Shown here: piece after piece, positions 1 through 56,493 of the stretch
Layout: each line of letters opens with the position of its first letter
Numbering within the stretch: position 1 is the stretch's first letter
Assembly (NCBI GenBank): GCA_963768575.1
Contig: CAVYIJ010000001.1
Location: 273,214 to 337,213 of the forward strand
Reading direction: 5' to 3'
DNA length: 64,000 bases
From: an uncultured Halobacteria archaeon
Lineage (GTDB): Bacteria > Pseudomonadota > Gammaproteobacteria > UBA9214
Translations under genes and position numbers: made by a program
The notes under the pieces: generated by a model
What the model was told of the DNA's origin: nothing
The model's input: only the letters and a program-made list of their open reading frames with translations
Databases searched by the model: none

Positions 1-1176
1 ACCGCGTATTTCGGCCTCGTCTCGTACGCCACCCAGTGACATGCGGGTAAATTTGCGGCCGGTCGCACGCGCGATTGATCTGCCAAGCGATGTCTTGCCC
101 ACGCCAGGCGGTCCGACCAGGCACAGAATCGGGCCCTTCAGTTTCTTGACGCGCTGTTGCACGGCCAGGTACTCGAGGATACGCTCCTTGACCTTTTCCA
201 GGCCATAGTGGTCCTCTTCAAGGATGCTTTCAGCGGCGGCCAGATCATGCCGGATCTTGGTGCGCTTTTTCCAGGGCACATTCACCAGCCAGTCGACATA
301 GTTCCTGACGACTGTCGCCTCGGCCGACATCGGTGACATCATTTTCAGTTTGTTGAGCTCGGTCGTTGCCTTCTCTTTGGCCTCCTTGCTCATGCCCGCC
401 TTTTCAATTTTCTGTTCCAGCTCTTCCAGTTCGTTGGGCGTATCTTCCATGTCACCCAGCTCTTTCTGGATCGCCTTCATCTGTTCATTCAGGTAGTACT
501 CGCGCTGGCTCTTTTCCATCTGCTGCTTCACGCGGCCACGTATGCGCTTCTCGATCTGCATGATATCGATTTCGCCCTCGATCAGGACCATCAGGCGCTC
601 AAGCCGCTGGTGGCAGCTGTTGATTTCGAGGATTTTCTGTTTCTCGTCAAGCTTGAGCGACATGTGTGCAGCAATAGTGTCGGCCAGGCGCCCAGGCTCC
701 TCGATACCCGAGAGTGAAGTGAGAATCTCCGGCGGAACTTTCTTGTTCAGTTTTACGTACTGATCGAACATCGCCAGTAACGAGCGCGTCAGGATTTCCA
801 TCTCTTTTTCGTCTGCCGTGCTGTCCTGTTCAAGCAGTTCGATTCTGGCGGTAAAAAAGGAATCGGTGCTTTCGTAACCGGTAATCTTTACCCGTTCCGC
901 ACCCTCGACCAGCACCTTGACGGTGCCATCAGGCAATTTGAGTAACTGCAAAATTGTCGACAGCGTGCCGATCTCGTGAATATCGTCGATTGCCGGGTCG
1001 TCTATTTCGGCGTTTTTCTGCGCCACCAGCAGGATTTTCTTGTCATCCTGCATGGCTGTATCCAGCGCATTGATTGATTTCTCACGGCCAACGAACAGCG
1101 GAATTACCATATGCGGGTACACAACCACGTCCCTGAGAGGCAGTACTGGTATCGCTTGTTCCGTTTGCTCTGTCAT
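1..1176 (-). CDS. lon: ATP-dependent protease Lon, N-terminal ~390 aa (gene continues beyond window start)
   Basis: Reverse-strand translation from ATG at 1176 reads [31 protein letters not shown]..., the classic Lon N-terminus. Position downstream of clpX matches tig-clpP-clpX-lon synteny. Open frame runs off the window edge. Confidence 0.9.
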
Positions 1177-1314
1177 AGTTTTATCCATCCGTTCAGGTGT
1201 TGTAAGTAATGAGGGTCTGCATGTGGCAAAGCATCAACATACTTGCCCGGCAGTGACCACCCGGTACATACCCGCCGACGTAGCGCATGATCTGGTTGGC
1301 TGTCCCACATACCC

Positions 1315-1346
1315 AGAGATGGGGACAGATTATCGAACTTCAACCG
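1315..1346 (-). promoter_or_regulatory. sigma-32 (RpoH) type heat-shock promoter upstream of lon
   Basis: Minus strand reads TTGAAG (1343..1338), a 13-nt spacer, then CCCCATCT (1324..1317), matching consensus TTGAAA-N13/14-CCCCATNT. It lies ~140 nt upstream of the lon start and overlaps a dyad at 1301-1329. Confidence 0.45.
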
Positions 1347-1441
1347 AATTTTGACAGGTAACAACTATGCAGCAAGGAATATGCCAAGTAAGCATTCTCC
1401 GCGCCGCTATTTAATACCTTTGAATTTCATGTAGATATGAA

Positions 1442-2713
1442 TTATTCGGAGGCGGCAATGGGTTCAGGTGTGTCAAAAATCATGTACGGCTTGGAGCCGG
1501 TAACGATGACATTTTCATCGATGACCACTTTTCTGACGTTTTCCAGCGAGGGTAGATCATACATGGTATCGAGCAGGATCTGCTCGAGGATGGTGCGCAG
1601 ACCACGTGCGCCGGTTTTGCGCTCCATGGCCTTTTTGGCGACTGCACGCAAGGCATCTTCGCGAAACTCGATTTCACACCCTTCCATGTCAAACAATTTC
1701 TCATATTGCTTGGTCAGGGCATTTTTCGGCTCTGTCAATATCTTGACCAATGCATGCTCATCGAGTTCTTCGAGTGTAGCGACGACCGGCAGGCGGCCGA
1801 CAAATTCAGGAATCAGGCCATACTTGATCAAATCCTCGGGCTCAACCTCGTAGAGGATCTCGCCCAGGTCCTTCTCTTCATTCTTGCTTATGACAGGTGC
1901 CGAGAAACCGATACCGGTAGACTCTGAACGGCTGCGGATAATCTTGTCGAGACCGGCAAATGCGCCGCCGACGATAAACAGGATATTGGATGTATTGACC
2001 TGCAGGAATTCCTGCTGCGGATGCTTCCTGCCACCCTGGGGTGGTACCGAGGCGACCGTACCCTCGATCAGCTTGAGGAGGGCCTGCTGCACACCCTCGC
2101 CCGACACATCGCGGGTAATCGAAGGGTTATCGGATTTCCTGGAAATCTTGTCAATTTCGTCGATATAGACGATACCCGTCTGCGCCTTGTCGACATCATA
2201 ATCGCATTTCTGCAGGAGTTTCTGGATGATGTTTTCAACATCCTCGCCAACGTAACCGGCCTCTGTCAGCGTCGTCGCATCTGCAATCGTGAAAGGAACA
2301 TCGAGGAACCTGGCAAGTGTTTCGGCCAGCAGGGTCTTGCCCGACCCGGTCGGTCCGATCAGAAGGATGTTACTTTTGGATAGCTCGACATCATCCTTCG
2401 ATGCCTTGGCGTCAAGGCGCTTGTAATGGTTGTACACGGCAACCGAAAGCACCTTCTTGGCGCGGAGCTGACCAATAACATACTCATTGAGCACATCATT
2501 GATTTCCTGTGGCTTGGGAAGTTTCTCTTCACCCGCTGCCGTTTTCTCCTGCATTTCCTCTCGAATGATGTCATTACACAACTCAACACATTCATCACAG
2601 ACGAATACAGAAGGACCGGCAATCAGCTTGCGTACTTCGTGCTGACTTTTGCCACAGAAGGAACAGTAGAGCAGTTTGCCGTCTTCGCCCTTGCCGTTAC
2701 GATCGTTGCTCAT
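1442..2713 (-). CDS. clpX: ATP-dependent Clp protease ATP-binding subunit ClpX
   Basis: 423-aa ORF with N-terminal zinc-finger [27 protein letters not shown], Walker A GPTGSGKT and ClpX-typical length. Confidence 0.97.
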
Positions 2714-2896
2714 TTGACGCCCTCACGATTGGAACCAAAACCCCTTCCCTAACGGTTTTAACATTTATTGTAATTATGAATCAACTCCTGTGGACAACAG
2801 GACAGTAATTTTGCCGGCATTTACCTGTATTTTCCCGCCTGTCAGGGCCAAATGCCGGATTACCGCCAAACAACCCGCCTGCTGATAAGGTTGCGT

Positions 2897-3520: not shown

Positions 3521-3544
3521 AACTGATTTATCGGTCTCCGGAAC

Positions 3545-4838
3545 CTATCCTTGAGACTTCTTGGCCTCCTCCACGATCTCGCTAAATGTCATTTTCACGT
3601 TCTCGACCTGACCTCCGCCGTGCTCTACAACCCACTCAACGACCTGGTCCTCGAGCACTGCTGACTGAACGCCTGACAGCTGTGCCTGGTTTCCATAGTA
3701 CCACTGCACTACTTCTTCAGGTTTTTCATAAGAGGCGGCTATGGTCTCCACCCTGTCCCGAACAATATCCGGATCTACCTGGATCTGGTTCAAACGGGCA
3801 AGCTCGGAGACAATCAATCCCAGCTTGACTCTTTTTTCCGCCTCCGCTGTCAGCATCTCCGGGGAACGGCCCTGGAATTGCTCCAGTCCCAGCATTTCCT
3901 TCACCTCGTTCTCGATAAAGTTTTTTGGACTCTCGATCGGATTGTTTTGCAGCAGGCCGTCAAATACCTGGTTTTTCAGCTTCGAGCTGATCAGGCTTTT
4001 GAGTTCACGCTCCATGTTTTCGGTAACTGCGGTACGCAAGCCATTCACTCCGCCTTCAGGCACGCCAAAAGTGGTCGCAAATTCGTCATTCAGTTCAGGC
4101 ATTACCATCTCGGCGACAGAATTGACCCTGACCTTGAAACTGGCCAGCTTGCCGGCAACTTCAGCAGCTTGATAGTCCTCGGGGAATGTAACTTCCACGA
4201 CCTTGTCATCACCCGCCTGTGCGCCTTCCAGTTGTGCTTCGAAACCCGGGATCATACTGTTCGAACCAAGTACCAGCGGGATGTTATCCGCCTTGTTCCC
4301 GGTGAAGGCCGTGCCGTCGATCGTGCCCTCGAAACTGATGTTCAGCTGGTCATCCTGCCGGGCCGGACGGTCAACCTCGTCCCAGGTGGCGCGCTGGCTG
4401 CGCAGGTTATCGATCATGGCGTCAATATCTTCTTCCTGATTTCGACGTCGGACGGGACACGGTAAAGTTGTAATTGATATCGCTGCCAAGCTCGGGAAAT
4501 ACCTCAAATGTTGCGGTGTATTCCAGCGGCTCGCCGGGTTGCGGTACTTTCTGGTCGATATTCGGACTGCTTGCCGGACGAATACTTTCGAGTGTGAGCG
4601 CCTCCTGCAAGGTGGAATTTGCCACCTGGTTAACAACTTCGAGTCGCACCTGATGGCCAAACTTCTGTTCGATGACTTTCATCGGCACCTTGCCGGGACG
4701 AAAACCGTCAAGACGCACCGTCTGCGTCATGGACTTCAGCCTTGATCTCACCTCGTCGTCAATACGTTCCGCTGGCACCTGCACGGTCATTCGGCGCGCC
4801 AGCCCCCCGGTATTTTCCACTGAAACTTCCATTCTCAA
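3545..4838 (-). CDS. tig: Trigger factor, interrupted by an apparent 1-nt frameshift near 4450-4460
   Basis: The 138-aa ORF 4422..4838 (MRMEVSVENTGGLARRMTVQ...GFRPGKVPM) is the Tig N-terminus. The ORF 3545..4660 carries the Tig middle and C-terminal domains from EEDIDAMIDNLRSQRATWDEV onward. The two frames differ by 1 nt. Confidence 0.85.
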
Positions 4839-4926
4839 ACCTCTTGATATCTGCTGATTTTTATGCCTTGATCATGCTTTATCTTCGTGCAAGCCTGTCC
4901 GCTGCAAATCTGCATGCATGGCGGGC

Positions 4927-5011
<85 letters not shown>

Positions 5012-5168
5012 ATGGGTCTCCTGCTGTCTCTATCGAGGATGCCTGCTTGATGTTCTTGAATTATAACTACTTGGAAAGGGTTTGCGCACCCCAATAATCG
5101 GTAGAATTACTCCCATCCAGAACGGGCCATCAGCCCGGGCACATGAGGCCAGCGATGCTGGATTGATC

Positions 5169-5244
5169 TGGTGGGCCGTGAAGGAATCGAACCTTCAACC
5201 AATGGATTAAGAGTCCACTGCTCTGCCAATTGAGCTAACGGCCC
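5169..5244 (-). tRNA. tRNA-Lys (anticodon CTT)
   Basis: 76 nt; reverse complement is GGGCCGTTAGCTCAATTGGCAGAGCAGTGGACTCTTAATCCATTGGTTGAAGGTTCGATTCCTTCACGGCCCACCA; acceptor stem pairs; anticodon loop CTCTTAA. Confidence 0.75.
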
Positions 5245-5312
5245 GAAAGCGCGCTATTGGAGCATAGTCTGCAGGGTGGTTCAAGCAGCCCGCAGGCGGC
5301 CGGGCCGGGAAT

Positions 5313-5389
5313 TGGGGTGGACGATGGGACTCGAACCCACGACGACTGGAATCACAATCCAGGGCTCTACCAACTGAGCTACGCCCACC
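5313..5389 (-). tRNA. tRNA-His (anticodon GTG)
   Basis: Reverse complement is GGTGGGCGTAGCTCAGTTGGTAGAGCCCTGGATTGTGATTCCAG...CCATCGTCCACCA, including the His-specific extra 5' G; anticodon loop TTGTGAT. Confidence 0.9.
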
Positions 5390-5433
5390 ATAAAAAAGGC
5401 TTGCCTGCCGATCACCAATCAGCCCCTGCTGTT

Positions 5434-5510
5434 TGGCGCGCCCGGCAGGATTCGAACCTGCAACCGTCGGCTTAGAAGGCCGGTGCTCTATCCTGTTGAG
5501 CTACGGGCGC
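5434..5510 (-). tRNA. tRNA-Arg (anticodon TCT)
   Basis: Reverse complement is GCGCCCGTAGCTCAACAGGATAGAGCACCGGCCTTCTAAGCCGACGGTTGCAGGTTCGAATCCTGCCGGGCGCGCCA, closely resembling E. coli argU; anticodon loop CTTCTAA. Confidence 0.88.
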
Positions 5511-5528
5511 AGGTTACACCTCACCAAC

Positions 5529-5605
5529 TGGTCGGGGTAGAGAGATTCGAACTCCCGACATCCTGCTCCCAAAGCAGGCGCGCTACCAGGCTGCGCTATA
5601 CCCCG
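5529..5605 (-). tRNA. tRNA-Pro (anticodon TGG)
   Basis: Reverse complement is CGGGGTATAGCGCAGCCTGGTAGCGCGCCTGCTTTGGGAGCAGGATGTCGGGAGTTCGAATCTCTCTACCCCGACCA, proM-like; anticodon loop TTTGGGA. Confidence 0.9.
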
Positions 5606-6635: not shown

Positions 6636-6644
6636 CGGGCGGGT

Positions 6645-8084
6645 CTACTCGCGCCGCCAGCTCGTCCCCCCGGCACCGTCTTCCAGCACAATGCCCTGCG
6701 CCGCCAGCTCGTCGCGGATCCGGTCGGCTTCGGCCCAGTTCTTTTGCTCCCTCGCCTTTAGACGCTCTTCAATCATTTGTTCGATCTTTTCATCCAATAA
6801 CCCGATCGATAAATTTACCGAAGCACCAGTTAATTTAAATTCTCCAGGTTCAGCATAAAGTACGTGATGCCCATGGAGATATTCCTCTGGATCAGACTGC
6901 AACAATCCGAGAATGCCGCCAAGTTTTACCAGGCAGGCGGACAATGAAAGTGCCTTTCCGGAGTCTTCGATGCGGCTCCGGTTGATTTCCCGCGCCAGAT
7001 TAAACAGGACTGCAATCGCCTCGGGCGTATTGAAATCGTCGTTCATGGCATCGTGGAAGTCCTTTATGTAGGCTTCGCATGATGTATCCGCCTGTCTCGC
7101 GGGCGCGAGCCCACGCAGCGCGGTGTATAGCCGGTTCAGGGCCGCCTTGCTGTTGTCGAGGTTTTCCTGTGAATAGTTGAGTGGGCTGCGGTAATGGCTC
7201 GCAAGGATAAAGTAGCGGATTTCCTCGGCCCGGTAATTCTTCAGTATTTCCCTGACGGTGAAAAAATTACCCAGTGACTTGGACATTTTCTCATCATCGA
7301 CCCTGACGAAACCGTTGTGCATCCAGTAGTTCACAAAGGGCCGGCCGGTTGCGGCTTCCGACTGGGCAATTTCGTTTTCGTGATGCGGGAACTTGAGGTC
7401 CATCCCGCCTCCGTGAATGTCGAAGTGCTCGCCCAGCTGGCAAGTCGACATGGCCGAGCATTCGATATGCCAGCCGGGCCTGCCGGCACCCCAGGGAGAC
7501 TCCCAGCCAGGTTCACCCTGCCTGGCCGCCTTCCAGAGCACGAAATCCAGCGGGTCATCCTTCTGCTCATTGACCTCGATACGGGCGCCGGCCTGCAGGT
7601 CCTCGATTTTCTTTCCTGACAGTTTGCCGTAACCATCGAATTTGCTGACGTCATAGTAGACATCGCCATTGTCGCCCTGGTAGGCATAGCCCTTGTCTGT
7701 CAGTGCGCTGATCATGGCAATGATCTCGTCCATGGATTCGGTCGCGCGCGGCTCCAGGTCCGGCCGGGTGACGCCGAGTGCATCCGCGTCTTCATTCATG
7801 ATCTTGATAAAGCGTGACGTCAGCGCATGTATATCCTCGCCGTTTTCGCTGGCACGCTGGATGATCTTGTCGTCGATGTCGGTAATATTCCTGACATAGG
7901 TGACGTCGTATCCAAGCTCTCTCAGGTAACGGACCACCACATCGAATACCACCATCACCCGCGCATGCCCGAGATGACAGTAGTCATAGACCGTCATGCC
8001 GCAGACGTACATTCTCACCTTGCCCTCATCAATCGGGACGAAGGTATCCTTCTGATTAGTAAGGGTGTTATAGATCTTCAACAT
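6645..8084 (-). CDS. cysS: Cysteine--tRNA ligase
   Basis: 479-aa ORF with HIGH motif ([15 protein letters not shown]) and KMSKS (KMSKSLGN); class I aaRS, CysS-like throughout. Confidence 0.95.
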
Positions 8085-8856: not shown

Positions 8857-8874
8857 GCAGGGCCGGCCAGCCGC

Positions 8875-9650: not shown

Positions 9651-10373
9651 CTAGTCAAGCCCGAATTCAGCGTAGCCGTCCGGCAGCCTGAACAATGCGG
9701 CTGCAACCCGCAGACTGGCTTTGAAATCCACCAGTGATCTGCGATACCCCGTCCAATCGTACTCCTGCAAGGGCAGACCGTGTTCCAGGTGACGTGCCGG
9801 TGCGTAGGCATATCTGGACAAGAAACAGGGTGTCTGCACGCTTTTCGGCACTGTCTCCATGCTGTGCAACTGGCGGGCAGCGAGTACCCGCTCATACTCG
9901 GCCAGCCCTGAAACCGCCGTGTCGAGGAGACCAGGGACCACAACCAGCTGCTGGCAAATCCCGCCGTTTGCCAGTAACCGGAAGTTGACCGGTCGCTTGC
10001 CCTGTATCGCGGGTGCGGCCGGATCGGTCGTTTGCTCCTGGGACAGTTCAAGGTCCGGAGGTAATTCTGCAGCAGCCGCGCGATAGTCGATCACCAGGAT
10101 ATTCCTTTCATCGTGATTGACGCTGGAGAGCCTTCGAGTGGCCCGCTCCAGCAATACGAAATCGCCACTGTCGTTACCATCATCGATGCGTACATGCCTG
10201 TCGTTTACCAGTACCCTGACCGGATAAACATCGGTCCCCGCCTCCTGCTCTTCGTACAGCAGCATGGCCACCTCAACACCGTCGCCGGCGGGTAAATCCG
10301 CACGTGCCAGTAGCGGCAACGCCAGGCAGATACCGGCCAGTACCATCAATCGGCAAACGCGGTAACCGGTCAT
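9651..10373 (-). CDS. Hypothetical secreted protein (signal peptide, no recognised domain)
   Basis: 240-aa ORF with N-terminal signal peptide MTGYRVCRLMVLAGICLALPLLARA. Codon usage is consistent with neighbours, and its start overlaps the stop of the upstream gene (ATGA at 10370-10373). Confidence 0.6.
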   Translation of the reverse strand: MTGYRVCRLMVLAGICLALPLLARADLPAGDGVEVAMLLYEEQEAGTDVYPVRVLVNDRHVRIDDGNDSGDFVLLERATRRLSSVNHDERNILVIDYRAAAAELPPDLELSQEQTTDPAAPAIQGKRPVNFRLLANGGICQQLVVVPGLLDTAVSGLAEYERVLAARQLHSMETVPKSVQTPCFLSRYAYAPARHLEHGLPLQEYDWTGYRRSLVDFKASLRVAAALFRLPDGYAEFGLD

Positions 10374-11283
10374 TGCAGCGGCCCTGCCGCCATTTCTTCC
10401 AGCATGCGAAGCTCATCCGGGTCGAACCCGGCCAGCGCACGGGCCGGTGCGTTCAACGGTTGCTTGAGCCTGTCCATCTTGTAATCGACCAGTAAAGACC
10501 TGAATGTCGCGGCCGGTTCCAGCCCCCGTTGCTTGCAGAGATACCGGAACCAGCGTGAACCGGTCTCCACGTGACCGATTTCATCGGCATAAATCCTTTC
10601 CAGGATGGCGGCAGTCCTGTCATCGCCGCCATGCTGCAGGCGCCGGATCATCGCCGGGTAACATCGAGACCACGGGCTTCCAGCACGCGCGGAACCAGCG
10701 CCATGCGGACCAGTACATCATCGGCCGTCTTGGCGGCCATCTCCCACAGACCATCATGCGCGGGGTATTCACCGTACTTGCTACCCAGTTCCTGCAAGCG
10801 TTCGTTCAGCAGGCAAAAATGCAGCGCCTCTTCCCCGGCAACCTTCACCCAGTCGGCATAATAAGCGTCAGGTAGACCCCGGAAACGCAGTACGGCATCC
10901 CAGGCAAGGTTGATGGCATTGAATTCGATATGCGCCAATGCATGTATGAAGGCAGTCCGCCCTGTCTCGCTGCCCAGCTTCCTGCGTGGTAATTCACAGT
11001 GGTGCACCAGTGGCGGCTTGTCCGGACGCCCGGGCGAAACGAGCGCCACCGCTGGTGTGTCCGCGTCCAGTCGGCACGACCCGTCCTGCATCAGGGCCGC
11101 TGCCGCCAGCGTCCGGGAAACCTTGTCGGTGGTATCGCATGCAGCCAGGCAGGCGTGCGCCAGTTCAAACAGGTCTGCCATCAGTGCACGGTCTCCGCGA
11201 ATTGAAGCACGATTACAATATCCATAACGTTGGTTCCGGTCGGGCCGGCATTCAGGTGCGGAGCGCCGCGAGGCCACGTTCAA
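10370..11283 (-). CDS. DUF455-family ferritin-like protein, interrupted by a 1-nt frameshift near 10650
   Basis: The 211-aa ORF 10648..11283 carries the DUF455 hallmark HALAHIEFNAINLAWDAVLRF. The 93-aa ORF 10370..10651 (MIRRLQHGGDDRTAAILERIYADEIGHV) is the C-terminal continuation in the +1 frame. The junction GTTACCCGGCGATG suggests a missing C in a C-run. The true start may be the internal Met at 11181. Confidence 0.7.
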
Positions 11284-24539: not shown

Positions 24540-25626
24540 TCAGTTCGTGGCGCGCAGCGCGGTCACGACGGCGTCACCCATGGTGACTGTATCGACAACC
24601 TGCATCCCTGCCGATGCAATATCCTGTGTTCGCAGCCCCTTGTCCAGCACGTGCCCGACGGCGGTCTCGATACGTTTCGCAAGAGCAGCCTCATCCAGAC
24701 TGTAGCGCAACATCATCGCCACCGACAGAATCGTGGCCAGCGGGTTGGCGGCACCCTGCCCGGCGATGTCGGGCGCAGACCCGTGAATGGGTTCATACAT
24801 GCCCTTGCCGTTACTGTCCAGCGATGCGGACGGCAACATGCCGATTGACCCGGTCAGCATGGCGGCAGCGTCGGAGAGAATATCACCAAACATGTTGGAC
24901 GTGACCATGACATCGAACTGCCTGGGTGCACGCACCAGCTGCATGGCCGCATTATCCACGTACATGTGGGACAGCTCCACATCCGTGTATTCCCCGGCCA
25001 CCCGGTTCATCACCTCGCGCCACAGTTCACTGCACTCCAGCACATTGGCCTTGTCCACGGAGCAAAGGCGACAGTCGCGCTTGCGGGCGATATCGAATGC
25101 CACTCGACCGATGCGCTCGATTTCCGCCTCACTGTAAACCAGTGTATTGAAACCTTCCCGCTGCCCGTCATCACGCGTGCGAATACCGCGTGGCTGGCCA
25201 AAGTAAATTCCGCCCGTGAGTTCACGCACGATCATCAGGTCAAGACCGCTGACAATTTCCGCCTTCAGGGTGGAGGCATCCACGAGTTGCGGATAAAGGA
25301 TGGCCGGCCGCAAGTTGGCGAAAAGTTCCAGCTCGGCGCGCAGGCGCAACAGGCCCTGCTCCGGACGCAAGTCGCGCTCCAGACTCGTCCCATTGCGGTC
25401 CGCCTACCGCGCCGAGGAGAATGGCATCGGCAGCGCGCACCACGGCCAGCGTGTCCTCGGGCAAAGGTTGCCCATGTGCATTACAGGCGGCACCCCCCAC
25501 ATCTGCATGCTCCAGTTCCGCGTCGAGACCGAATTCCGAACGCAGTTCCGCCAGCACTTTTTCAGCCTCGGCGACAATTTCCGGGCCAATGCCGTCGCCG
25601 GGAAGTATTGCTATTTTATATGTCAT
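24540..25626 (-). CDS. leuB: 3-isopropylmalate dehydrogenase, interrupted by a 1-nt frameshift near 25375-25385
   Basis: N-terminal ORF 25240..25626 ([18 protein letters not shown]...[11 protein letters not shown]) then becomes nonsense. C-terminal ORF 24540..25370 (..[28 protein letters not shown]...[15 protein letters not shown]...) lies in the +1 frame. Together they make a full-length LeuB. Confidence 0.88.
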
Positions 25627-30764: not shown

Positions 30765-31698
30765 TCAGACACTGTTCGTACTGCGCCCGGTGGCAACCGC
30801 CTCGAACACAGGCCGGTACTCGATGAGCTGGTTGTAATCGAGCAGGAATACACCCTCGCCGCCATATTCAAAATCAAGCCACAAAAACGGTATTTCGGGA
30901 TACTGGTTGCTTAACATTTCCCCGCTATAGCCAACCTCGACCACGATTATACCGCCTGGCCGCAGATAATCAGGCGCGTCGCGGAGGATTTTCACGACGA
31001 TATCCAGTCCGTCATCGCCTGCTGCCAGCCCGATACCGGGCTCGTGCGCGAACTCCTCGCCGAGTTCGTTATATTCAGACAGCGGCACATAAGGCGGATT
31101 CGAGACGATGATGTCATAGCGTTCCGGGCCAAGACCGGTAAACAGGTCCGCCGCTTGCAGCCGTACCCGCTCTGCCCAGACCATGCAAACGCACATTCCT
31201 GCGCGCAACATCGAGGGCATCAGTCGAGATGTCGGTCGCCGTGACTCGTGCGTCCGGGAAGGCGTGGGCGCAGGCAATCCCGATACAGCCGCTCCCGGTA
31301 CAAAGGTCCAGTATGCTGCTGACCCGATCGGGATCGATCCAGGGCGTAAAGCGGGACTCGATCAGCTCCGCAATCGGCGAGCGCGGCACCAGTACGCGTT
31401 CGTCCACGTAAAACGGCATACCTGCAAACCATGCCTGATTGACGAGGTAGGCTGCCGGCTTGCGCGTCAGCACGCGTTGCTGCAACAGGTCCCTGGCACG
31501 CGTGCGATCGGTCTCCGCCGGGACGGTATCCAGCACACTGTCAGGTTGCTCGTAACCGATACCGAGCGCATGCAGGACCAGTGCAGCGGATTCATCCCGG
31601 GCGTTGTCGGTACCATGACGGTAGATGAGTCCATGCTCCTCGAACTGCCGGGCACCCCATTCAATCAGTTCCCGCACCGTCATGGCAGCTTCATGCAT
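30765..31698 (-). CDS. prmB: Ribosomal protein L3 glutamine methyltransferase PrmB, interrupted by a 1-nt frameshift near 31190-31200
   Basis: N-terminal ORF 31114..31698 (..ATDISTDALDVARRNVRLHGLG then nonsense). C-terminal ORF 30765..31277 lies in the +1 frame and holds ERVRLQAADLF...IVSNPPYV (NPPY methyltransferase motif). The aroC-prmB neighbourhood matches E. coli. The junction suggests one G missing from a G-run. Confidence 0.85.
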
Positions 31699-33845: not shown

Positions 33846-34343
33846 ATGAATATCCGTAACCTTGTAACACCGGCCTTGATGGCCCTTTGCCTGGGCACAG
33901 CCGGTACGGTCCAGGCAGATCGCGGCTATACCTCGGCGTTCCTGTACAGCAGCGATAACCATCGCCCGTATCACGACCATGACTATGGTTATTACTACAA
34001 GCACCGTGACCGCCGTCATCACGGTCACAAGCACTACGGGAAACATTTGCAGCGTCACCACAAACGGTACCGTCACGACACGCATGCGAGACATGACAGG
34101 CATCAAGATGACCGCCACGGCTCAAAGCGGCGCGATGGAGACAGGCATCACGATGGCCGCCACGGCTCAAAGCGGCGCGATGGAGACAGGCATCACGATG
34201 GCCGCCACGACTCAAAGCGGCACGATGGAGACAGGCATCACAATGACCGCCACGGATCGTATCAAAAGGATGGAGGCAGACATGACGGAAAGCGTCACAT
34301 TAGCCGGTCCCGGATCGGTATCGGTTATACTGGACGCCTGTAA
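33846..34343 (+). CDS. Secreted histidine-rich repeat protein (putative periplasmic metal-binding protein)
   Basis: Strong RBS AGGAG, then a signal peptide MNIRNLVTPALMALCLGTAGTVQA, followed by His/Asp/Arg-rich low complexity. It includes three tandem 15-aa repeats DGRHGSKRRDGDRHH encoded by 45-bp DNA repeats at ~34110-34250. Confidence 0.7.
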   Translation: MNIRNLVTPALMALCLGTAGTVQADRGYTSAFLYSSDNHRPYHDHDYGYYYKHRDRRHHGHKHYGKHLQRHHKRYRHDTHARHDRHQDDRHGSKRRDGDRHHDGRHGSKRRDGDRHHDGRHDSKRHDGDRHHNDRHGSYQKDGGRHDGKRHISRSRIGIGYTGRL

Positions 34344-34410
34344 TCGATTTAATTTGCAGCAGGGGCGGTGCTCGCGTGCCCGCTCCTGCCGCCCGTCAAC
34401 GGACGCAGCC

Positions 34411-35013
34411 TTGCAACCGGACCACAGTAACAACCAGGCGCTGGAAAAATTCTTTGTCGAGCACGAGGAAAAAGCGTTTTATGTGGCCTATGCTGCACTC
34501 TGGGACCGCGAGGCGGCCATGGATGCGGTACAGGACGGCATGGTGCGAATGGTCGAGTACTACCGCGACAAGCCCGCCAAGGAATGGCCTGCCCTGTTCC
34601 GCACCGTACTGAACAGCAAAATCAATGACATCAGGCGGCGGCGCATGATCGAGCAGGGAAAGTACAAGCTGGTTTCGTTGACCGGTTTGTTCAGGCAAAA
34701 AGGGGATGAAGACCGTGACACAATCGAATACGAACTGCCTGATGCGGAACGTACGGACGGGATCACTGCCCCCGAGGTGCAATATGTGGCAGAGGAAATC
34801 AGGGGAAAGGTGGCTGCCGCCATGCTTGCGCTCCCTGAACGGCAACGACAGGTCTTCGTACTGAGGGAATGGCGCGGGCTGAGCATCAAGGAAACCGCCC
34901 AGACGCTGGGATGTTCTGAAAACAGCATCAAGCAACATCATTTCAGGGCCATGAGGGGACTGCGAAAACAACTTGCAGAGGTATGGGATTATGCACAACC
35001 AACAACATCCTGA
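34411..35013 (+). CDS. ECF-family RNA polymerase sigma factor (sigma-70 region 2 and 4)
   Basis: Region-2-like FYVAYAALWDREAAMDAVQDGMVRMVEYY and region-4-like LPERQRQVFVLREWRGLSIKETAQTLGCSENSIKQHHFRAMRGLRK. A TTG start at 34411 gives ~200 aa; an alternative ATG at 34281 would overlap the His-rich gene. Confidence 0.75.
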   Translation: MQPDHSNNQALEKFFVEHEEKAFYVAYAALWDREAAMDAVQDGMVRMVEYYRDKPAKEWPALFRTVLNSKINDIRRRRMIEQGKYKLVSLTGLFRQKGDEDRDTIEYELPDAERTDGITAPEVQYVAEEIRGKVAAAMLALPERQRQVFVLREWRGLSIKETAQTLGCSENSIKQHHFRAMRGLRKQLAEVWDYAQPTTS

Positions 35014-35870: not shown

Positions 35871-36668
35871 ATGCATCCCATGTTGAATATTGCCGTACGT
35901 GCTGCCCGTACGGCCGGCAACGTCATCACCCGGAGCATGGCACGGCTTGACAGCATTTCGATAGAAGCGAAGGACCGCAATGATTTCGTTACGGAAGTCG
36001 ACCGGGAGGCGGAGAATGCGATCATCGGCATTTTACGCAAGGCATATCCTCGCCATGGCATTCTTGCTGAAGAGAGCGGACAGAGTGATGGCGACGATTA
36101 CCAGTGGATTATAGATCCACTGGACGGTACGACGAATTTCCTGCATGGCTTCCCGCAGTTCGCTGTATCGATCGCACTGCGCCACAAGGGTCGCCTGGAA
36201 CAGGCTGTTGTCTATGATCCGCTTTCCCAGGAACTTTTCACCGCTACCCGCGGAGATGGCGCCTACCTGAACGATCGACGCATTCGCGTCAGCAACCGCA
36301 AAGGCCTCGAAGGCGCGTTGCTGGGCACCGGTTTTCCATTCAAGGCCCAGCATCATCTGGAAACCTACCTGGATATGTTCCGCGCCCTGTTCCCGCAATC
36401 CGCCGGTATCAGGCGCGCGGGTTCCGCCGCCCTGGATCTTGCCTTCGTGGCGGCCGGACGGCTGGATGGATTCTGGGAGATCGGCCTGAGCACCTGGGAC
36501 ATGGCCGCGGGGGTCCTGCTTATCCAGGAAGCCGGTGGACTATCCAGCGACTTCAGCGGCGGCCACAAGCTTTCTTGAAAGTGGCAACCTGGTTGCCGGA
36601 AACCCGAAGGTCTTTGCTGAAATACTCAAAGCCATTCATCCCCACGTTACACCGCAACTCGCTGACTA
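35871..36668 (+). CDS. suhB: Inositol-1-monophosphatase SuhB, interrupted by a 1-nt frameshift near 36571-36575
   Basis: [17 protein letters not shown]... is nearly identical to the E. coli SuhB N-terminus. The frame ends ...DFSGGHKLS*, whereas the +1 frame continues [24 protein letters not shown] (SuhB C-terminus, GNIVAGNP in E. coli). A T-run sits at the junction. Confidence 0.88.
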
Positions 36669-49767: not shown

Positions 49768-49843
<76 letters not shown>

Positions 49844-49857
49844 TTTAACACTGTATA

Positions 49858-49934
49858 GCCCCGGTAGCTCAGCTGGATAGAGCAAGCGCCTCCTAAGCGC
49901 TAGGTCGGACGTTCGAATCGTCTCCGGGGCACCA
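49858..49934 (+). tRNA. tRNA-Arg (anticodon CCT)
   Basis: 77 nt GCCCCGGTAGCTCAGCTGGATAGAGCAAGCGCCTCCTAAGCGCTAGGTCGGACGTTCGAATCGTCTCCGGGGCACCA; anticodon loop CTCCTAA. Confidence 0.88.
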
Positions 49935-50424
49935 ACTAATTCCCCCGACCGTACAGACGGTTCGAACGTCCGACGTTTCTATCAGCCCCGTTCGACAAGC
50001 GGCGTAAGCCGCGCAGAACGTCGTCGCGAAGCGACGGCGGCCCCGAAGGGGTGAGGCCCAAAGGGCCGAATAATCGTCTCCGGGGCACCAACTAATTCCC
50101 CCGACCGTACAGACGGTTCGAACGTCCGATGCGAGGCGCATGGCGATGCGCCGAGTAGAATCAGTCCCGTTCGACAAGCGGCTTGTCGTTCCCGCGCGTC
50201 CCTGTGCTCCACGACATAAGTACATCCCTGTACAAAAGCCGCGCACGACTGCAGGGATGCAGGAGGTAGAGCAACGCAGGGAACAGTTGCCGAGAACGTC
50301 GTCGCGAAGCGACGGCGGCCCCGAAAGGGCTCAGGGCATCATGCCCTGAGTAGTATCGAGCCCGAATAATCGTCTCCGGGGCACCAACTAATTCCCCCGA
50401 CCGTACAGACGGTCCGAACGTTTC
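49916..50424 (+). repeat. Three direct copies of a ~60-bp unit (last ~20 nt of tRNA-Arg plus ~40 nt downstream) with partly conserved hairpin-rich spacers (att-site-like scars)
   Basis: Copies at 49916-49975, 50067-50129 and 50363-50421 share CGAAT(A)ATCGTCTCCGGGGCACCAACTAATTCCCCCGACCGTACAGACGGTTCGAACGT. Spacers share GAACGTCGTCGCGAAGCGACGGCGGCCCCGAA(A)GGG and TCAG(C/T)CCCGTTCGACAAGCGGC. Confidence 0.8.
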
Positions 50425-50426
50425 AT

Positions 50427-52640
50427 TCAAGTATTGCGCCGCGCGCCGATGACATTCTGCAACTGCCCGATCCGGGTCAGCACCCGGCTTAACTGGCCGA
50501 TATCGGTAATCTCCAGCGTCAGGTTCATACGCGCTATCCCGTCACTGGCATCCGTCCTGGTATTGGCGCCGACCAGGTTGACCTTTTCGTTCGCCAGCAG
50601 TGCGGTAATGTCACGCAACAAACCGGACCGATCGTATGCTTCTACGATGATATCGACCTGGTAGCCCGCTTCATCGGGCAGCCCCCAGTCGACTGCTATC
50701 AGGCGATCGCGATCGTCACCCTGGAGTCGCAGAATATTGCCGCAGTCCTGCCTGTGGATCGACACGCCACGCCCGCGCGTGATGTAACCGATAATGGGAT
50801 CACTGGGCACCGGCCGGCAACAACGTGCGGTCGTCGTCATCAGGTTACCGACGCCCTGGATATCAAATTCACCCGCTCCGGTGTCCCTTGTCTTGCGTCT
50901 GGTCCGCGACTGTTGCGGTTTCAGGGTGTCCTCACGAGGGATCAGCTCACTCAGGGAACGCGTCAGCTGGCCGGTCGTGATTTCGCTGCTGCCCAATGCT
51001 GCGAGAAACTCGTCAACCTGCCTGCCCCTGAAACGTTCCGCAATCTTTTCAACCGGAATATCCGAAATACCCACACGCTGCAGTTCCTTGTCCAGAATTG
51101 CACGTCCCGCAGCCAGGTTGTGCTCATAATCCTGACGCTTGAACCAGGCACGCACCCGTGAGCGTGCCCTCGAGGTATGCAGGTAGCCTAGGTGACTATT
51201 AAGCCAGTCTCTGCTCGGCCTGCCCTGTTTCGAGGTCAGAATTTCCACCTGTTCGCCATTGTTCAATTGCCAGGTCAAGGGCACTATCCTCCCGTTGACT
51301 TTCGCGCCACGGCAACGATGGCCAACCTCGGTATGCACCGCATAGGCAAAATCCAGTGGTGTCGCCCCCTGCGGCAGGTCTATGATCCGTCCCTGTGGCG
51401 TCAACACATAGACGCGATCCTGGAATGCTTCAGATTTGAACCGGTCAACGAAGTCGGCGGCTGTGCGCTCCTCTTCCTTCCATTCCAGCAACTGGCGCAA
51501 CCAGGTAATTTTCTCCTCGTACCCCCTGTCGGGGCCACCGCCTTCCTTGTAGCGCCAGTGTGCCGCAACCCCCAGCTCTGCATGACGATGCATTTCATAT
51601 GTTCTGATCTGCACTTCAAGATTCAGGCCGTCCGGACCGACCACAGCGGTATGGAGCGAGCGATAGAGGTTTTCCTTGGGGTTGGCGATATAGTCGTCGA
51701 ACTCTTTCGGGATATGGCGCCACAGGCCGTGCACGAGCCCGAGCGCTGCGTAGCAGTCTTTTTCCTCGTCGACCAGTATCCGCACGGCGCGCGTATCGAA
51801 AACCTGGTCGAAACTGAGATGTTTGCGCTGCATCTTCCGCCAGATACTGTAAATATGCTTGGTGCGGCCGGTAACAGTCGCATTAATACCGGCAGCTGCA
51901 AGTTCCTGCTCGATTATTTCGATAACGCGCAATATATAGGCTTCAAGTGATTCACGGTCCCCCTCCAGCTGTTTCGCGATCGACTGGTAGGCCTCCGGCT
52001 CCAGGTAGCGCATCGACAGGTCTTCCAGCTCCCACTTGATCTGCCAGATGCCAAGGCGATTGGCGAGCGGCGCGTAAATATCCAGCGTCTCCTGCGCAAT
52101 TCGTTTGCGGCGATCCGCGTCCAGGTGGGCCAGGGTTCGCATGTTATGCAGCCTGTCCGCCAGCTTGATCAATACCACGCGCACATCTTCCGCCATTGCA
52201 AGCAGCAGCTTGCGCAGGCTCTCGGCCTGGTCCGCCTGGTTGCCGTCCACGGTGTCTTGCTGGCGAAACTCTCCAATGCGCTCCATCTTGGTCACGCCAT
52301 CAACCATTCGCGCAATGGTCGGTCCGAAATCGTTACCCAGGTCGGTCAGTGTTATGGACGTATCCTCGACTACGTCATGCAGCATGGCAGCGACGAGTGT
52401 CTCGTAGTCAAGTTTAAGTTCATGAAGAATTTCAGCGACTGCCAGCGCATGCAGATAGTAGGGTTCGCCGGACTTGCGAAGTTGCGCATGATGCGCAGTG
52501 CAGGCAACCTCGATCGCACGGCTTAATGCTTCGCCATGCTCGGCGCTGTGCCCGGCCAGCAGTGCATCGACCCGCAATTGTGCGGTCGCATCGATGCATC
52601 CTGCTCCTGAGCCACCCTGATTGCCGGTCACTTCCACCAA
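50427..52640 (-). CDS. relA: RelA/SpoT-family (p)ppGpp synthetase/hydrolase
   Basis: 737 aa. HD motif intact (MLHDVVEDT). The synthetase region is very close to RelA (KHIYSIWRKMQRK...AELGVAAHWRYKEGG). TGS and ACT regions present. No rpoZ upstream. Confidence 0.9.
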   Translation of the reverse strand: MVEVTGNQGGSGAGCIDATAQLRVDALLAGHSAEHGEALSRAIEVACTAHHAQLRKSGEPYYLHALAVAEILHELKLDYETLVAAMLHDVVEDTSITLTDLGNDFGPTIARMVDGVTKMERIGEFRQQDTVDGNQADQAESLRKLLLAMAEDVRVVLIKLADRLHNMRTLAHLDADRRKRIAQETLDIYAPLANRLGIWQIKWELEDLSMRYLEPEAYQSIAKQLEGDRESLEAYILRVIEIIEQELAAAGINATVTGRTKHIYSIWRKMQRKHLSFDQVFDTRAVRILVDEEKDCYAALGLVHGLWRHIPKEFDDYIANPKENLYRSLHTAVVGPDGLNLEVQIRTYEMHRHAELGVAAHWRYKEGGGPDRGYEEKITWLRQLLEWKEEERTAADFVDRFKSEAFQDRVYVLTPQGRIIDLPQGATPLDFAYAVHTEVGHRCRGAKVNGRIVPLTWQLNNGEQVEILTSKQGRPSRDWLNSHLGYLHTSRARSRVRAWFKRQDYEHNLAAGRAILDKELQRVGISDIPVEKIAERFRGRQVDEFLAALGSSEITTGQLTRSLSELIPREDTLKPQQSRTRRKTRDTGAGEFDIQGVGNLMTTTARCCRPVPSDPIIGYITRGRGVSIHRQDCGNILRLQGDDRDRLIAVDWGLPDEAGYQVDIIVEAYDRSGLLRDITALLANEKVNLVGANTRTDASDGIARMNLTLEITDIGQLSRVLTRIGQLQNVIGARRNT

Positions 52641-52988
52641 GCCACCACCTGTTAGCGCCCGCCTGCGGCGATAGTCTGCGCCCTGCCCGGCGACTTCGCT
52701 ATGCAGGACGTTTTAAGGATCTGTTTTAATTGAGAATAATCGAATAAGGCTGCAACGGCAACAGGGCCACTGGAAGAGTCGGTTCACAGTTGCCGCAACG
52801 GCTACCTGGCCATGTCCGGCGATGAGACGACTGCTGGCGTGATTTTGCAGGCAGACGACTTGCCGTCGATCGGTGCAGCGTGTCATCACGCAGGTTGCCA
52901 GGCCGTATCAGGACATGGCTGTCGGGGCATTATCGAAGCGCCCTCCGGTCAGCCGCGCGGCCTGCCTGCCCGCCGGGCCTCCTGGTGG

Positions 52989-54527
52989 TTAACCGGAGCT
53001 TGATTGCGACCGCGCATCATCCCGCTTGTCGCGCTCTGGCTTGACGACGGCGAGCGGCACTGCGGGTTGCTCTTGCGGGGTCAATTCTCCTGATGGGTCC
53101 GTAAAATTATTGTTCAGGATTTGCACATACTGATTGGCCTCGGCAATGACCTTGTGCAGGCGCTTGCGTGTACGTGCATTCCAGCCGAGTGGCAGGCGCC
53201 TGAATATGCTGATCCATGGCCGGGAATTGCGCATGAAGGCATTGCGCAGGCGACCGCGTTCAAGTCCCGGCGCAATCTGGTTGTCGATCTGCCGCAGCAT
53301 GCGGCCCGTCATCAGGCGCCGAATCCTGAAATGGACAAATGCCAGCAGGCAAAGAGCCGCAACGAATGCAATGGCAGTCCAGGCAATATTGTTGGTCGAA
53401 CCCTGCCACCAGGCTGGACTGCTCCAGTGCCAACCTTCCCGCATACCCAGCCAGCCCGCAGCGAACACGGCAATAATCGTAAAAACTCCCAACATGGCCG
53501 CGTCCGCCCAGAGTACACTGCGACGCCATTGCGCACGGTACCCGGTCAGCCTCGGGACCAGTTTTTCTTCGATGTGATAGGCCAGTTTTTCAAGCGTCCC
53601 GGTAATCCGGTAGGCGCGTTCCACGTCGACACCCTGTATACGATCGTGAATCGCGGAAAGATCATGATCACGCTTGGCTTCATAGCGGGAACGTAACGCT
53701 TCGTTCTCGATCGCGACGGCGACTTCCGGATTGTAGATACAATAAAACTTGCCGGCTGATAAACCTTCCTGCGCAAGCGCCCGCTGCCACGCGCCTACCA
53801 CTTCCTCCGGATTGTCATCCCTGGCAGTGGTATCCATCTGGTTCAGGACAAATACAAACTTTGTAGCGTCCGAACGGTGTATCGTGTCGCCAACGAGGTG
53901 TTTCAGGGTGTCACGCATGGCCCCCGGCTCCGGATGACGCGCATCGAAGAAAACCAGCACCAGGTCTGACAGGTCGATTATATGATCGGTCAGTCGCAAG
54001 GTGGCGTTGCGCTGCGAATCCGCGTCGAAACCAGGTGAATCGATGATGATACGACCGCGGAGTTTCTCGCTCGTGCTGGTTTTTAGTTGCAGGTATGAGT
54101 CGACACGACGGCCTTCTCCATTGGCTACTTTCTCAAGCTCATTGCTGATCTGGTAGAAAGGAAAGCGGGGATCGGCGTCGAGTGCCGTCCCGGGCAGTGC
54201 ATGCGCATGATGCTCGCTGCCGAAACAGATGACGGTGAATTTGTCGTCGACAGCCTGATTTCCGGTTTCTTGCAGTTTCTCGCCGAGGAAATGATTGATG
54301 AAGGTGGACTTGCCCGCAGAATAGGTCCCCAGCACCGATATCATCGGCCACCAGGATATCTGGGTCGCAAACGACTGTTCAGCATCCAGCAGTCCGAGTG
54401 AACGCCCGATTTCGTCCAGGTGGCGATAGCTTTGCACTACCGAAACCAGCACCGGACTTTCTTTCCTCAGGTGCGTCTCGAGGCTCTTGAGACGTTGCCG
54501 GATCGTTTTTCCTGCCCTGGACATCAT
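52989..54527 (-). CDS. Dynamin-family GTPase with two C-terminal TM helices (bacterial dynamin-like protein)
   Basis: 512 aa with G1 GTYSAGKSTFIN, G3 DSPGF and G4 NQMD, in dynamin-like order and spacing. Two hydrophobic helices near residues 360-420. Confidence 0.7.
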   Translation of the reverse strand: MMSRAGKTIRQRLKSLETHLRKESPVLVSVVQSYRHLDEIGRSLGLLDAEQSFATQISWWPMISVLGTYSAGKSTFINHFLGEKLQETGNQAVDDKFTVICFGSEHHAHALPGTALDADPRFPFYQISNELEKVANGEGRRVDSYLQLKTSTSEKLRGRIIIDSPGFDADSQRNATLRLTDHIIDLSDLVLVFFDARHPEPGAMRDTLKHLVGDTIHRSDATKFVFVLNQMDTTARDDNPEEVVGAWQRALAQEGLSAGKFYCIYNPEVAVAIENEALRSRYEAKRDHDLSAIHDRIQGVDVERAYRITGTLEKLAYHIEEKLVPRLTGYRAQWRRSVLWADAAMLGVFTIIAVFAAGWLGMREGWHWSSPAWWQGSTNNIAWTAIAFVAALCLLAFVHFRIRRLMTGRMLRQIDNQIAPGLERGRLRNAFMRNSRPWISIFRRLPLGWNARTRKRLHKVIAEANQYVQILNNNFTDPSGELTPQEQPAVPLAVVKPERDKRDDARSQSSSG

Positions 54528-54743
54528 GGTATTTCCCTGCCGGTTATCAAGACGCCCGAATTGTGTGCAAACGCGATCCGTGCAAGCGGAAAGTCAGCAT
54601 GTCACTCATCATCCAGTACGGGCCGGTCACATCCTGCACGATGTTGTTCGTGTCACTCTTGTCATTCCGTATCAGACGCATCGGTAGAGTCATGCGCCGG
54701 GCCCGGACTATAAACGTGGCCTTTTTCATTACTGGCTCAATAC

Positions 54744-55352
54744 CTAGAACGCACCTTCCGCGCCGCGTTTCATTATATCCAGTATCACGTCCTTCACCTC
54801 GTTTGCCTCGTCAAACAAATCCTGCGGCAATTTTTTACCACCATGAATCATCATGTCCATGTTGAGAGTGTAGATCCATAATTTTCCGCTCTTGTCCTCG
54901 ATCAACGATAACCTGCATGGCAGGTAGGCCGAGTAGGCATCCGAGTAGGCAACCATTTTTGCAGCTGTCAGTGGATTGCAGAACATGTAGATTTTAAGAA
55001 ATCTTTGAGGTTCACCGGTCATCGCCTCGACCTGTTCTGATAACGGTAGTTCACCGACATTCTTGATATTGTGTTCGTTGGCAACAAAACGCATTGTCTC
55101 TTCAACTTCTTCGGCGCTCAAACCATCAGCGACCGGGGTTTTCCAGACAGTCGCTTCTGCCCCGTTGCCGGTCGATATGAGCCCCTTGACCATATCGGCA
55201 TAAACCGTGGGTGCATCTTCGTCAAAGGACGACAGGTTGCCGAGGTCCTTGAAATTCTGCATTCCGAAGTCATAAGCGAAAACGATCCATATCAGCCCGG
55301 CTACAACCGCGAGCCCGACAAGCGCGAACAAATTCCAGAACAATTTGAACAT
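54744..55352 (-). CDS. Membrane-anchored DUF302-domain protein
   Basis: 202 aa with an N-terminal TM anchor (FKLFWNLFALVGLAVVAGLIWIVFA) and a C-terminal region with a DUF302-like motif (KIYMFCNPLTAAKMV...YLPCRLSLIEDKSGKLWIYTLN). Confidence 0.55.
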   Translation of the reverse strand: MFKLFWNLFALVGLAVVAGLIWIVFAYDFGMQNFKDLGNLSSFDEDAPTVYADMVKGLISTGNGAEATVWKTPVADGLSAEEVEETMRFVANEHNIKNVGELPLSEQVEAMTGEPQRFLKIYMFCNPLTAAKMVAYSDAYSAYLPCRLSLIEDKSGKLWIYTLNMDMMIHGGKKLPQDLFDEANEVKDVILDIMKRGAEGAF

Positions 55353-55378
55353 TTTTGACTCCTTTTCGGACTATGCGG

Positions 55379-56493
55379 TTACGGGTTTTCCGGGGACGTT
55401 TCCGTGATGTACTGTTCGAGCTCCTCGGAACGGGGACTTTGCAGCCCCCTGAGGACATCAACCAGCTGCCGCGCCTGATCGACGAGGCCCTCATCGGCAA
55501 GCCGCTTGCCTGCTTCAAAATACGACGCGGAAGCGAGCGTCCACTTGCCTTGCGAGAAATACATGTTGCCGAGCTCCCCGTAACCATCCGGATTATCCGG
55601 ATCAGAAGCTATCAGGGCCTGATAATTTTTCTCGGCATTTATATAGTCCCGCAACCAGTATGCCTCGCGTGCTGCGGCGAGCAACTGGTAAGGAGTTCCA
55701 GCCGGCTTGTCGGTGGCTGCTTTTGCCGGCCGCTTGATCACAGACGCATCCACATCGGGCGCGGGCTGCGTGGCGGCTGGCGCGGTACTTTCCGGGCGGG
55801 GCACTTCTGCCGTCATCGTGGTCCCCTCAAGTGCCGGTACAGCACTACTGCCAGCTGCTGCTGTCGCTTGCGCAACACTGGCAGCGGTGCTGCTTGCCGG
55901 TTTCGACCGGCTTCCGGCAACTGCGGGGAGATCCGGCGACCCGGCCATTTCGTTTTCACGGGTTTTAGTCACGGCAGCCGGATCCTCATCCGCGGAAACC
56001 TTGTCGACCGTCGTAATTGGTGGTGTAACTTTCACCGCATCGCCAATTTGTCGGGCAACCGGTTCAGGTATGCTGTCTGCAGCATCGGTATCTTCTGCAA
56101 CAGCCGCTTTATCATTCGTCGCCGGGGCCGTCGGTTCTGTAGCTGCCGTACTTGCCGCTGGCTGCACACTGGTTTTATCGTCCGCATCCGGTGCGGCGCC
56201 AGGCTGTGGCTCACCTGCGTCGACCGGCCGATTTCTGCAACCGGCGCCTCCCCTGCATCCATTTCCTGCGCCTGCATGGAGGACTGGACAGGCTGTTCGC
56301 CACTTGCCGCATCACTTGCCGTATCACTATCACTGTCTGTACTGCTTTCAAACACCAGGAATTCGGGCAGTTCCAGGTCAGGAAACAGATCGCCCCGATA
56401 GATCAAGCCAAGAGCCAGTATCGCAACCACGACCAGTGCAAAGCCATGACTTAGAATTCGTGCAAAAAGATTCATAACAAATACTCCTGCCAA
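55379..56493 (-). CDS. TM-anchored protein with acidic Ser/Asp-rich and Ala/Pro/Thr-rich disordered regions and C-terminal TPR repeats; apparent 1-nt frameshift near 56225-56235
   Basis: The N-terminal piece 56032..56493 (TM helix then ESSTDSDSDTASDAAS...) and the C-terminal piece 55379..56167 (low-complexity then TPR: AYWLRDYINAEKNYQALIASDPDNPDGYGELGNMYFSQGKW) are in frames offset by 1. The C-terminal frame stays open upstream to 56312 and reads plausible low-complexity sequence. Confidence 0.6.

Follow-up and report, generated by a model that had tools for sequence, protein, structure and literature searches.

Gene content and split reading frames

The window analysed here, a stretch of 64,000 nucleotides (nt) of contig CAVYIJ010000001.1, has a G+C content of 57%, with nothing unusual in GC content or GC skew, and carries about 60 genes located mostly on the minus strand. 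The gene order starts with lon-clpX-clpP-tig, tRNAs, folD and cysS, proceeds over purF, trpFBA, fimV, asd and leuBDC and extends through aroC, prmB, suhB, secDF, tgt, queA, fliA and relA to a sulfur-globule protein gene. The closest genomes in GTDB are uncultured gammaproteobacteria near Thiohalobacter, Thiogranum and Ectothiorhodospiraceae (60-83% amino-acid identity for the MFS transporter), and the organism is a sulfur-oxidising gammaproteobacterium near Thiohalobacter and Thiogranum. In the sequence of this 64-kb stretch, seven genes are broken by eight single-base insertions or deletions (indels; four insertions and four deletions), namely tig with two lesions and the genes for a DUF455 protein, LeuB, PrmB, SuhB, a TPR membrane protein and an RND efflux permease with one lesion each. 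Very probably these eight indels are consensus errors of the deposited contig and not the marks of pseudogenes.

Several approaches identify the same split genes. Upon Pfam analysis, both open reading frames (ORFs) of a split pair fall on consecutive stretches of one model. Equally, a Viterbi pass based on codon usage finds same-strand frame switches in the middle of genes only at ~4440, 10655, 25400, 31173 and 56225, and the shifted tail of suhB (36568) was recognised in addition by tblastn searches with the ORFs of 80 related loci, which show no further consistent break between 17.7 and 39 kb. Exact-sequence look-ups place the proteins of the window on one deposited contig of 428,483 bp (NCBI, ENA). 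As the split fragments are called proteins on this contig, the lesions belong to the public record and have not been introduced by extraction of the window. Pfam, Viterbi pass, tblastn and the deposit thus agree with an earlier note on this DNA, which had described six of the genes, all but the RND permease gene, as two ORFs each with frames offset by one. The junctions proposed there fall into the right genes, but their coordinates are 3-22 nt off, with the true positions at 4437/4448, 10657, 25387, 31173, 36570 and 56225. The proposed repair by restoration of one base has to be revised, as leuB, prmB and suhB carry an extra base and tig needs two bases restored. The split genes and their lesions are as follows.

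3545..4832, minus strand: tig (trigger factor), present as a 136-aa N-terminal fragment (4422-4832) and a C-terminal ORF (3545-4660)
4447..4448, minus strand: first tig lesion, remnant codon AC between CCG (Pro) and GTC GAA ATC (Val-Glu-Ile), one base missing
4436..4437, minus strand: second tig lesion, remnant codon AG between ATC (Ile) and GAA GAA GAT (EED), one base missing
10370..11181, minus strand: DUF455 gene, split into 177-aa and 93-aa products, with Pfam model positions 3-164 and 166-246 on the two ORFs
Between 10657 and 10658, minus strand: DUF455 lesion, T missing (A on the plus strand), GTTAC[T]CCGG, no homopolymer
24540..25626, minus strand: leuB (3-isopropylmalate dehydrogenase), split, with Iso_dh 1-85 and 82-348 on the two ORFs
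25387, minus strand: leuB lesion, extra C (G on the plus strand), GGGA[C]GAG, no homopolymer
30765..31698, minus strand: prmB (L3 glutamine methyltransferase), split, with MTS 32-81 and 82-112 on the two ORFs
31173, given in plus-strand reading: prmB lesion, extra T, CCGCTC[T]GCCC, no homopolymer
35871..36666, plus strand: suhB (inositol monophosphatase family), last 32 codons shifted, with Inositol_P 2-242 followed by a short tail
36570, plus strand: suhB lesion, extra C, AAG[C]TTT, adjoining the TTT run without belonging to it
55379..56475, minus strand: gene for a TPR membrane protein, split in two ORFs
56224-56225, minus strand: TPR lesion, GGCC[G]GG, one G of GGG lost (CC for CCC on the plus strand), the only homopolymer event
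60099..64000, minus strand: gene for an RND (AcrB-family) efflux permease, N-terminus beyond the window, 1,279-aa ORF at 60099-63938
63975, minus strand: RND lesion, extra C, CAG[C]TAC, 25 bases from the end of the window

Repair leads to proteins of the length expected from intact relatives, with 429 aa for tig (429 aa in relatives), 270 for DUF455 (270), 361 for leuB (361-364), 310 for prmB (310-312), 265 for suhB (265) and 365 for the TPR membrane protein (365). End-to-end matches to NCBIfam equivalog models were obtained for about 20 other conserved genes, and the N-terminus of lon is intact. The lesions in the window are 1-nt indels only; in-frame stops, larger deletions and insertion sequence (IS) elements were not found among them, and a common sequence motif, for example a methylation motif, is not evident at the eight sites. 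The segment at 54581-54744, considered as another lesion upon the Viterbi pass, was rejected, as it represents a gene of its own with 60 aa, called as well in the contigs from JGI and Logan described below.

The breaks in tig and in the RND permease gene

Trigger factor is the only protein with two lesions in its gene. Trigger_N (1-117) is located on one ORF and FKBP_C together with Trigger_C on the other, and the protein has a length of 429 aa in 107 of 119 homologs. The homologs share the motif RP-v-VEI-gq-DDID, of which the window reads VSRP, VEI and EEDIDAM in three successive frames. Scoring with a hidden Markov model (HMM) gives 745.6 bits for two 1-nt deletions, and both a single 2-nt deletion (738.5 bits) and a single 1-nt insertion (733.4 bits) were rejected on their lower scores. 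Judged from its homologs, tig is thus best explained by two separate 1-nt deletions, which would be located 11 nt apart. The two deletions together do not restore the frame, and such a close pair is expected with p ~0.01 (own arithmetic) if eight events are distributed randomly over 64 kb, which points to a local failure of the consensus. A contig near-identical to tig was not found, neither by a protein search, with matches of at most 70% identity, nor by two scans of JGI metagenome contigs for exact patterns.

In the RND permease gene, PMIDVFVQ (63999-63976) is followed by YEGASAEQVSSLVTEPLE in the next frame, and the ACR_tran match of the ORF begins at model position 62 with ORF residue 2. 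Thirteen homologs, the best of them 90% identical, are unbroken at PMIDVFVQY[PE]GASAEQV. The break at 63975, beyond the range covered by the earlier note and absent from its list, is therefore a seventh broken gene as predicted from frame and homology. A near-identical contig was equally not found for this gene. A second frameshift in the middle of the gene was considered and rejected, since the ACR_tran match runs on without a change of frame up to model position 1015 and is followed by a repeat-rich tail. This tail is a C-terminal extension of about 280 aa (60099-60940) past the ACR_tran model, in the same frame and with an abundance of tandem repeats of 45 nt and 39 nt (60321-60627).

Intact alleles in independent assemblies

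Independent sequence of the same population is available for 32 kb of the window, with twelve contigs from JGI metagenome 3300045962 and from the Logan assemblies of SRR35386096, SRR28061007 and ERR12040029 that match it with 97.8-99.9% identity. Near-identical contigs (98.8-99.9%) cross five of the eight lesion sites (DUF455, leuB, prmB, suhB and TPR) and show the intact allele every time. In the alignments over 32 kb, there are five frame-breaking 1-nt gaps, exactly at the five split-gene junctions, and a shared lesion was not found in any of the comparison data sets. The DUF455 gene is intact (270 aa) in Logan contig L088 of SRR28061007, which aligns with 99.57% identity over 3.2 kb with the lesion site as its sole gap. 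Equally, prmB is intact (312 aa) in JGI contig L087 (99.47% over 5.4 kb, sole gap at the lesion site), and the intact versions of prmB with 310-312 aa share a 90% cluster. Contig L082 of JGI 3300045962, with 99.3% identity over 1.29 kb and the leuB site as its sole gap, is in frame across the junction, but ends inside leuB, and the 361 aa refer to the gene after repair. For suhB, the sole gap to JGI contig L090 (99.06% over 2.3 kb) coincides with the lesion site, relatives read continuously through the junction and an intact version of 265 aa is present in the cluster. The gene for the TPR membrane protein is intact (365 aa) in two samples, JGI contig L085 and contig L086 of Logan SRR35386096, with the same single gap in both.

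The substitutions that distinguish the window from the comparison contigs are of a different nature. They consist of 74 synonymous, 45 non-synonymous and 20 non-coding changes, and the coding changes distribute over the three codon positions as 29/14/76, with 76 of 119 (64%) in third positions. The substitutions look like real variation under purifying selection, while the indels look unfiltered, with all eight breaking conserved reading frames. The fragments downstream of the lesions have a normal codon bias and show 15 synonymous versus seven non-synonymous differences, counts which are few. Single-nucleotide polymorphisms (SNPs) occur at 171 positions in 26 kb, and variation is locally high around the TPR site, where four mismatches fall within 15 nt.

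A different type of variation is seen in the 3' part of cysS (6795-6815, minus strand), where a patch is strongly divergent from Logan contig L091, with gaps of +3, -1, -1 and -1 that sum up to net zero. Between the two versions of cysS, there are 11 non-synonymous and seven synonymous differences, and this short C-terminal patch has the appearance of a segment that is recombined or hypervariable, and not of an error.

Homopolymers are not the preferred site of the lesions

Only one of the eight lesions, the TPR lesion, involves a homopolymer, a 3-mer shortened from GGG to GG. The view that the frameshifts reside mostly in short homopolymers does not hold upon exact alignment, which places seven of the eight outside of runs. 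Several lesions, however, adjoin or create a short run, as loss of the T creates CCC in DUF455 and the C inserted in suhB is next to TTT, and these runs probably misled the reading by eye. The comparison of homopolymer lengths proposed in the earlier note found all 242 of 242 homopolymers of 4-7 nt to be of the same length in both assemblies over the first 26 kb, the region cross-checked. With half of the events being insertions, seven of eight located outside of runs and run lengths concordant, the homopolymer-deletion signature of 454, Ion Torrent or older nanopore (R9) sequencing, which had been assigned to this DNA, is contradicted.

Split genes in related loci

In the relatives, split genes track the naming style of the assembly records. 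Eighteen proteins of the window (17.6-39.8 kb) were searched against the 80 related loci, which were sorted by record name into a long-read style (MFD*.bin or LOGT with 'contig_N', and Thiohalobacter thiocyanaticus Hrh1 with 'Consensus0') and a short-read style (k141_, k127_, NODE_, scaffold_). Long-read-named loci contain 12 split-gene events in six of 14 loci over 47,632 codons, whereas none was found in the 66 short-read-named loci over 134,348 codons (Fisher p = 1e-5). The rate of 8.4 events per 100 kb in the long-read-named loci compares with 12.5 per 100 kb in the window, and the broken genes vary by locus, including leuC, trpA, trpB, asd, aroC, leuB and suhB. The long-read metagenome-assembled genomes (MAGs) of the MFD collection are Nanopore-only, assembled with Flye and polished with one round of Medaka (PMC12313526). 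Split genes are therefore a general problem of such assemblies, and GTDB species representatives are among them.

The affected loci are L003, L012, L015, L033, L046 and L038, and the affected assemblies comprise MFD03551.bin.2.47, MFD03551.bin.2.59, LOGT_bin.0252, MFD00032.bin.2.60, MFD09730.bin.1.81 and the isolate Thiohalobacter thiocyanaticus Hrh1. Two of the records among the related loci, L001 (JABDRC010000256.1) and L003 (CAWKAE010000001.1), are titled 'Halobacteria archaeon', but carry the gammaproteobacterial synteny leuBDC-MFS-aroC-prmB-suhB with 80-90% amino-acid identity to the window, and these labels look wrong.

Repeats and tRNA genes of the window

The tandem-repeat genes, which had been regarded as especially suspect in the earlier note, turned out to be uninterrupted ORFs that differ from a short contig by whole in-frame units. 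A 517-aa ORF (58498-60051) contains 7.2 copies of a 90-nt (30-aa) unit at 58673-59313, with variants of 87 and 90 nt, and differs from the JGI contig only in the register of these units; a Pfam match was not found for this ORF. For the glycine- and tyrosine-rich ORF of 200 aa (57866-58468), the difference from the JGI contig amounts to a single unit of 15 nt at 57913, which keeps the frame. With respect to the copy number of the repeats, the long contig is more likely right than the short contig. A sulfur globule protein gene (57305-57730, PF17228) adjoins the 517-aa and 200-aa repeat ORFs, which may encode further envelope proteins of the sulfur globule. Another tandem repeat, a 45-nt unit with 3.6 copies and 93% matches, is located at 34095-34287 inside a 344-aa ORF (33979-35013).

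Directly upstream of tig, the minus strand carries five clustered tRNA genes (4927-5605; Leu-TAG, Lys-CTT, His-GTG, Arg-TCT and Pro-TGG), all of them intact according to ARAGORN and Rfam. On the other hand, the region 49768-50421 harbours tRNA-Ala(CGC) and tRNA-Arg(CCT), followed by 60-nt repeats at 49910, 50066 and 50362 that are 92-100% identical. The first copy of the repeat (49910) consists of the 3' end of tRNA-Arg and downstream sequence, and a second pair of repeats of 37 nt is interleaved with the 60-nt repeats. The repeats behind tRNA-Arg look like stacked remnants of att sites, derived from the integration of elements into the tRNA gene, and an island is no longer present in between. 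A further split gene at 49893-50430 was considered and rejected, as tRNA-Ala, tRNA-Arg and the three 60-nt repeat copies occupy this segment.

Origin of the frameshifts

The assumption that the lesions arose during construction of the consensus is favoured because intact alleles are present elsewhere, the indels are unfiltered by selection, there is a single type of lesion and split genes in the control occur in long-read-named loci only. The contig would most likely represent a noisy long-read metagenome assembly of modest depth or with mixed strains at the spots of the lesions. Each consensus error would shift the frame with the consequence that gene callers emit two fragments, and the organism itself would possess intact tig, DUF455, leuB, prmB, suhB, TPR and RND genes. 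We infer both the platform and the contribution of depth or strain mixture. Indels in long-read consensus sequences are a documented and coverage-dependent cause of frameshifted and fragmented gene calls (PMC9262707). In this respect, the preference of the earlier note for an artefact over independent pseudogenisation is well supported by the intact alleles at all five crossed junctions, the unfiltered lesions and the long-read-only pattern. The events resemble the residual indels of long-read (Nanopore or PacBio CLR) consensus assemblies, a problem measured with the IDEEL test (Sereika et al. 2022, PMC9262707), where single-base indels likewise split conserved genes into adjacent ORFs. As with such errors, the lesions of the window are absent from independent assemblies, occur at ~10 per 100 kb and have counterparts in Nanopore-only MAG relatives. 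In contrast to classical long-read errors, the window shows neither a homopolymer bias nor an excess of deletions (four versus four), and its pattern resembles more closely the random residual errors that newer chemistries leave at low coverage. In fact, homopolymers with lengths of up to about 10 nt are called well with newer pores (PMC9262707), and the absent homopolymer signature fits such pores, with the platform of the contig itself being presumed.

Some aspects weigh against consensus errors as the origin of the frameshifts. The alleles have been judged from assembled contigs. The comparison contigs differ by 0.1-1.2% through substitutions and stem from other members of the population and not from the same DNA molecules, a divergence that formally leaves room for strain-specific real frameshifts. 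Equally, the lesions in tig and the RND gene are derived from homologs of 70-90% identity only. The sorting of the relatives into long-read and short-read assemblies follows record names and not metadata and is partly presumed. Finally, the sequence does not allow the platform to be named, since it lacks the homopolymer deletions that are the classic signature of nanopore, 454 and Ion Torrent data.

Genuine frameshifts specific to the strain would describe a lineage in the process of losing genes, with leucine auxotrophy and no trigger factor, in early decay or as a mutator clone, which is unlikely. The lesions are truly present in the deposited sequence, the contigs with 0.1-1.2% divergence could be sister strains, and a share of ~12% broken genes is of the order seen in decaying genomes such as those of Mycobacterium leprae and Sodalis. 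As in decaying genomes, including also Shigella, housekeeping genes of the window are frameshifted and about one gene in nine is affected. Unlike in those genomes, there is one type of lesion, with 1-nt indels in the absence of nonsense mutations, larger deletions and IS insertions, and none of the lesions is shared in the population or present in any other data set. Furthermore, the neighbourhood is otherwise intact, including leuC and leuD. Natural indels as well as those in mismatch-repair-deficient strains concentrate in runs, so that the pattern of the window, with seven of eight events outside of runs, is unlike both, and these contexts are untypical of real slippage. Downstream fragments have kept their codon bias with mostly synonymous differences, few in number, and show no clear sign of relaxed selection, and the identical pattern is observed in unrelated long-read-named MAGs, but never in short-read-named ones. 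That a recently degraded or mutator strain of this free-living bacterium has lost trigger factor, LeuB, PrmB, SuhB and the RND pump by single-base indels outside of runs, all kept by its ~99%-identical sister strains, is accordingly very unlikely.

The consensus might, on the other hand, have become chimeric at positions where co-assembled strains differ, a sub-type of artefact that involves strain mixture instead of read noise or low depth. The polymorphic population, with its 171 SNP positions in 26 kb, and the location of the TPR site in a variable patch are in line with such chimeras, and microdiversity affects the recovery of MAGs according to the MFD study (PMC12313526). The junctions in leuB, prmB, suhB and DUF455 are, however, without SNPs within 20 nt, and chimeras are a possible, but rather doubtful, origin of the lesions. 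Programmed recoding, by which ribosomal frameshifting or transcriptional slippage would restore full-length proteins, has a negligible probability. The arrangement in two ORFs offset by one frame is reminiscent of the programmed frameshift genes prfB and dnaX, and with the +1 shift of prfB, the -1 shift of dnaX and the IS3 transposases the proteins of the window share that they are encoded in two overlapping frames. In contrast to these systems, neither a conserved shift site nor a stimulatory element is present in the window, and a slippery heptamer or run is lacking at seven of the eight sites. Moreover, the orthologs from the same population and all 80 related loci have no frameshift at these positions, and for tig the ribosome would have to shift twice in succession at a distance of 11 nt. 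Recoding is not known for any of the gene families split in the window. The intact orthologous alleles together with the lack of slippery sites effectively refute programmed recoding.

Implications

The frameshifts of the window are most likely not a biological feature, and their value is a warning for annotation and polishing. At ~12 indels per 100 kb, the contig of 428 kb would contain roughly 50 errors and the genome several hundred. Polishing or checks that focus on homopolymers would miss seven of the eight errors in the window, while their repair requires polishing with short reads or homology-guided correction of frameshifts. Truncated fragments would seed protein databases, and fragments of this contig already serve as cluster representatives. 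For the physiology of this sulfur-oxidising gammaproteobacterium, automatic annotation would suggest pseudogenes and auxotrophies that do not exist, such as an auxotrophy for leucine, and would underestimate the completeness of its genome.

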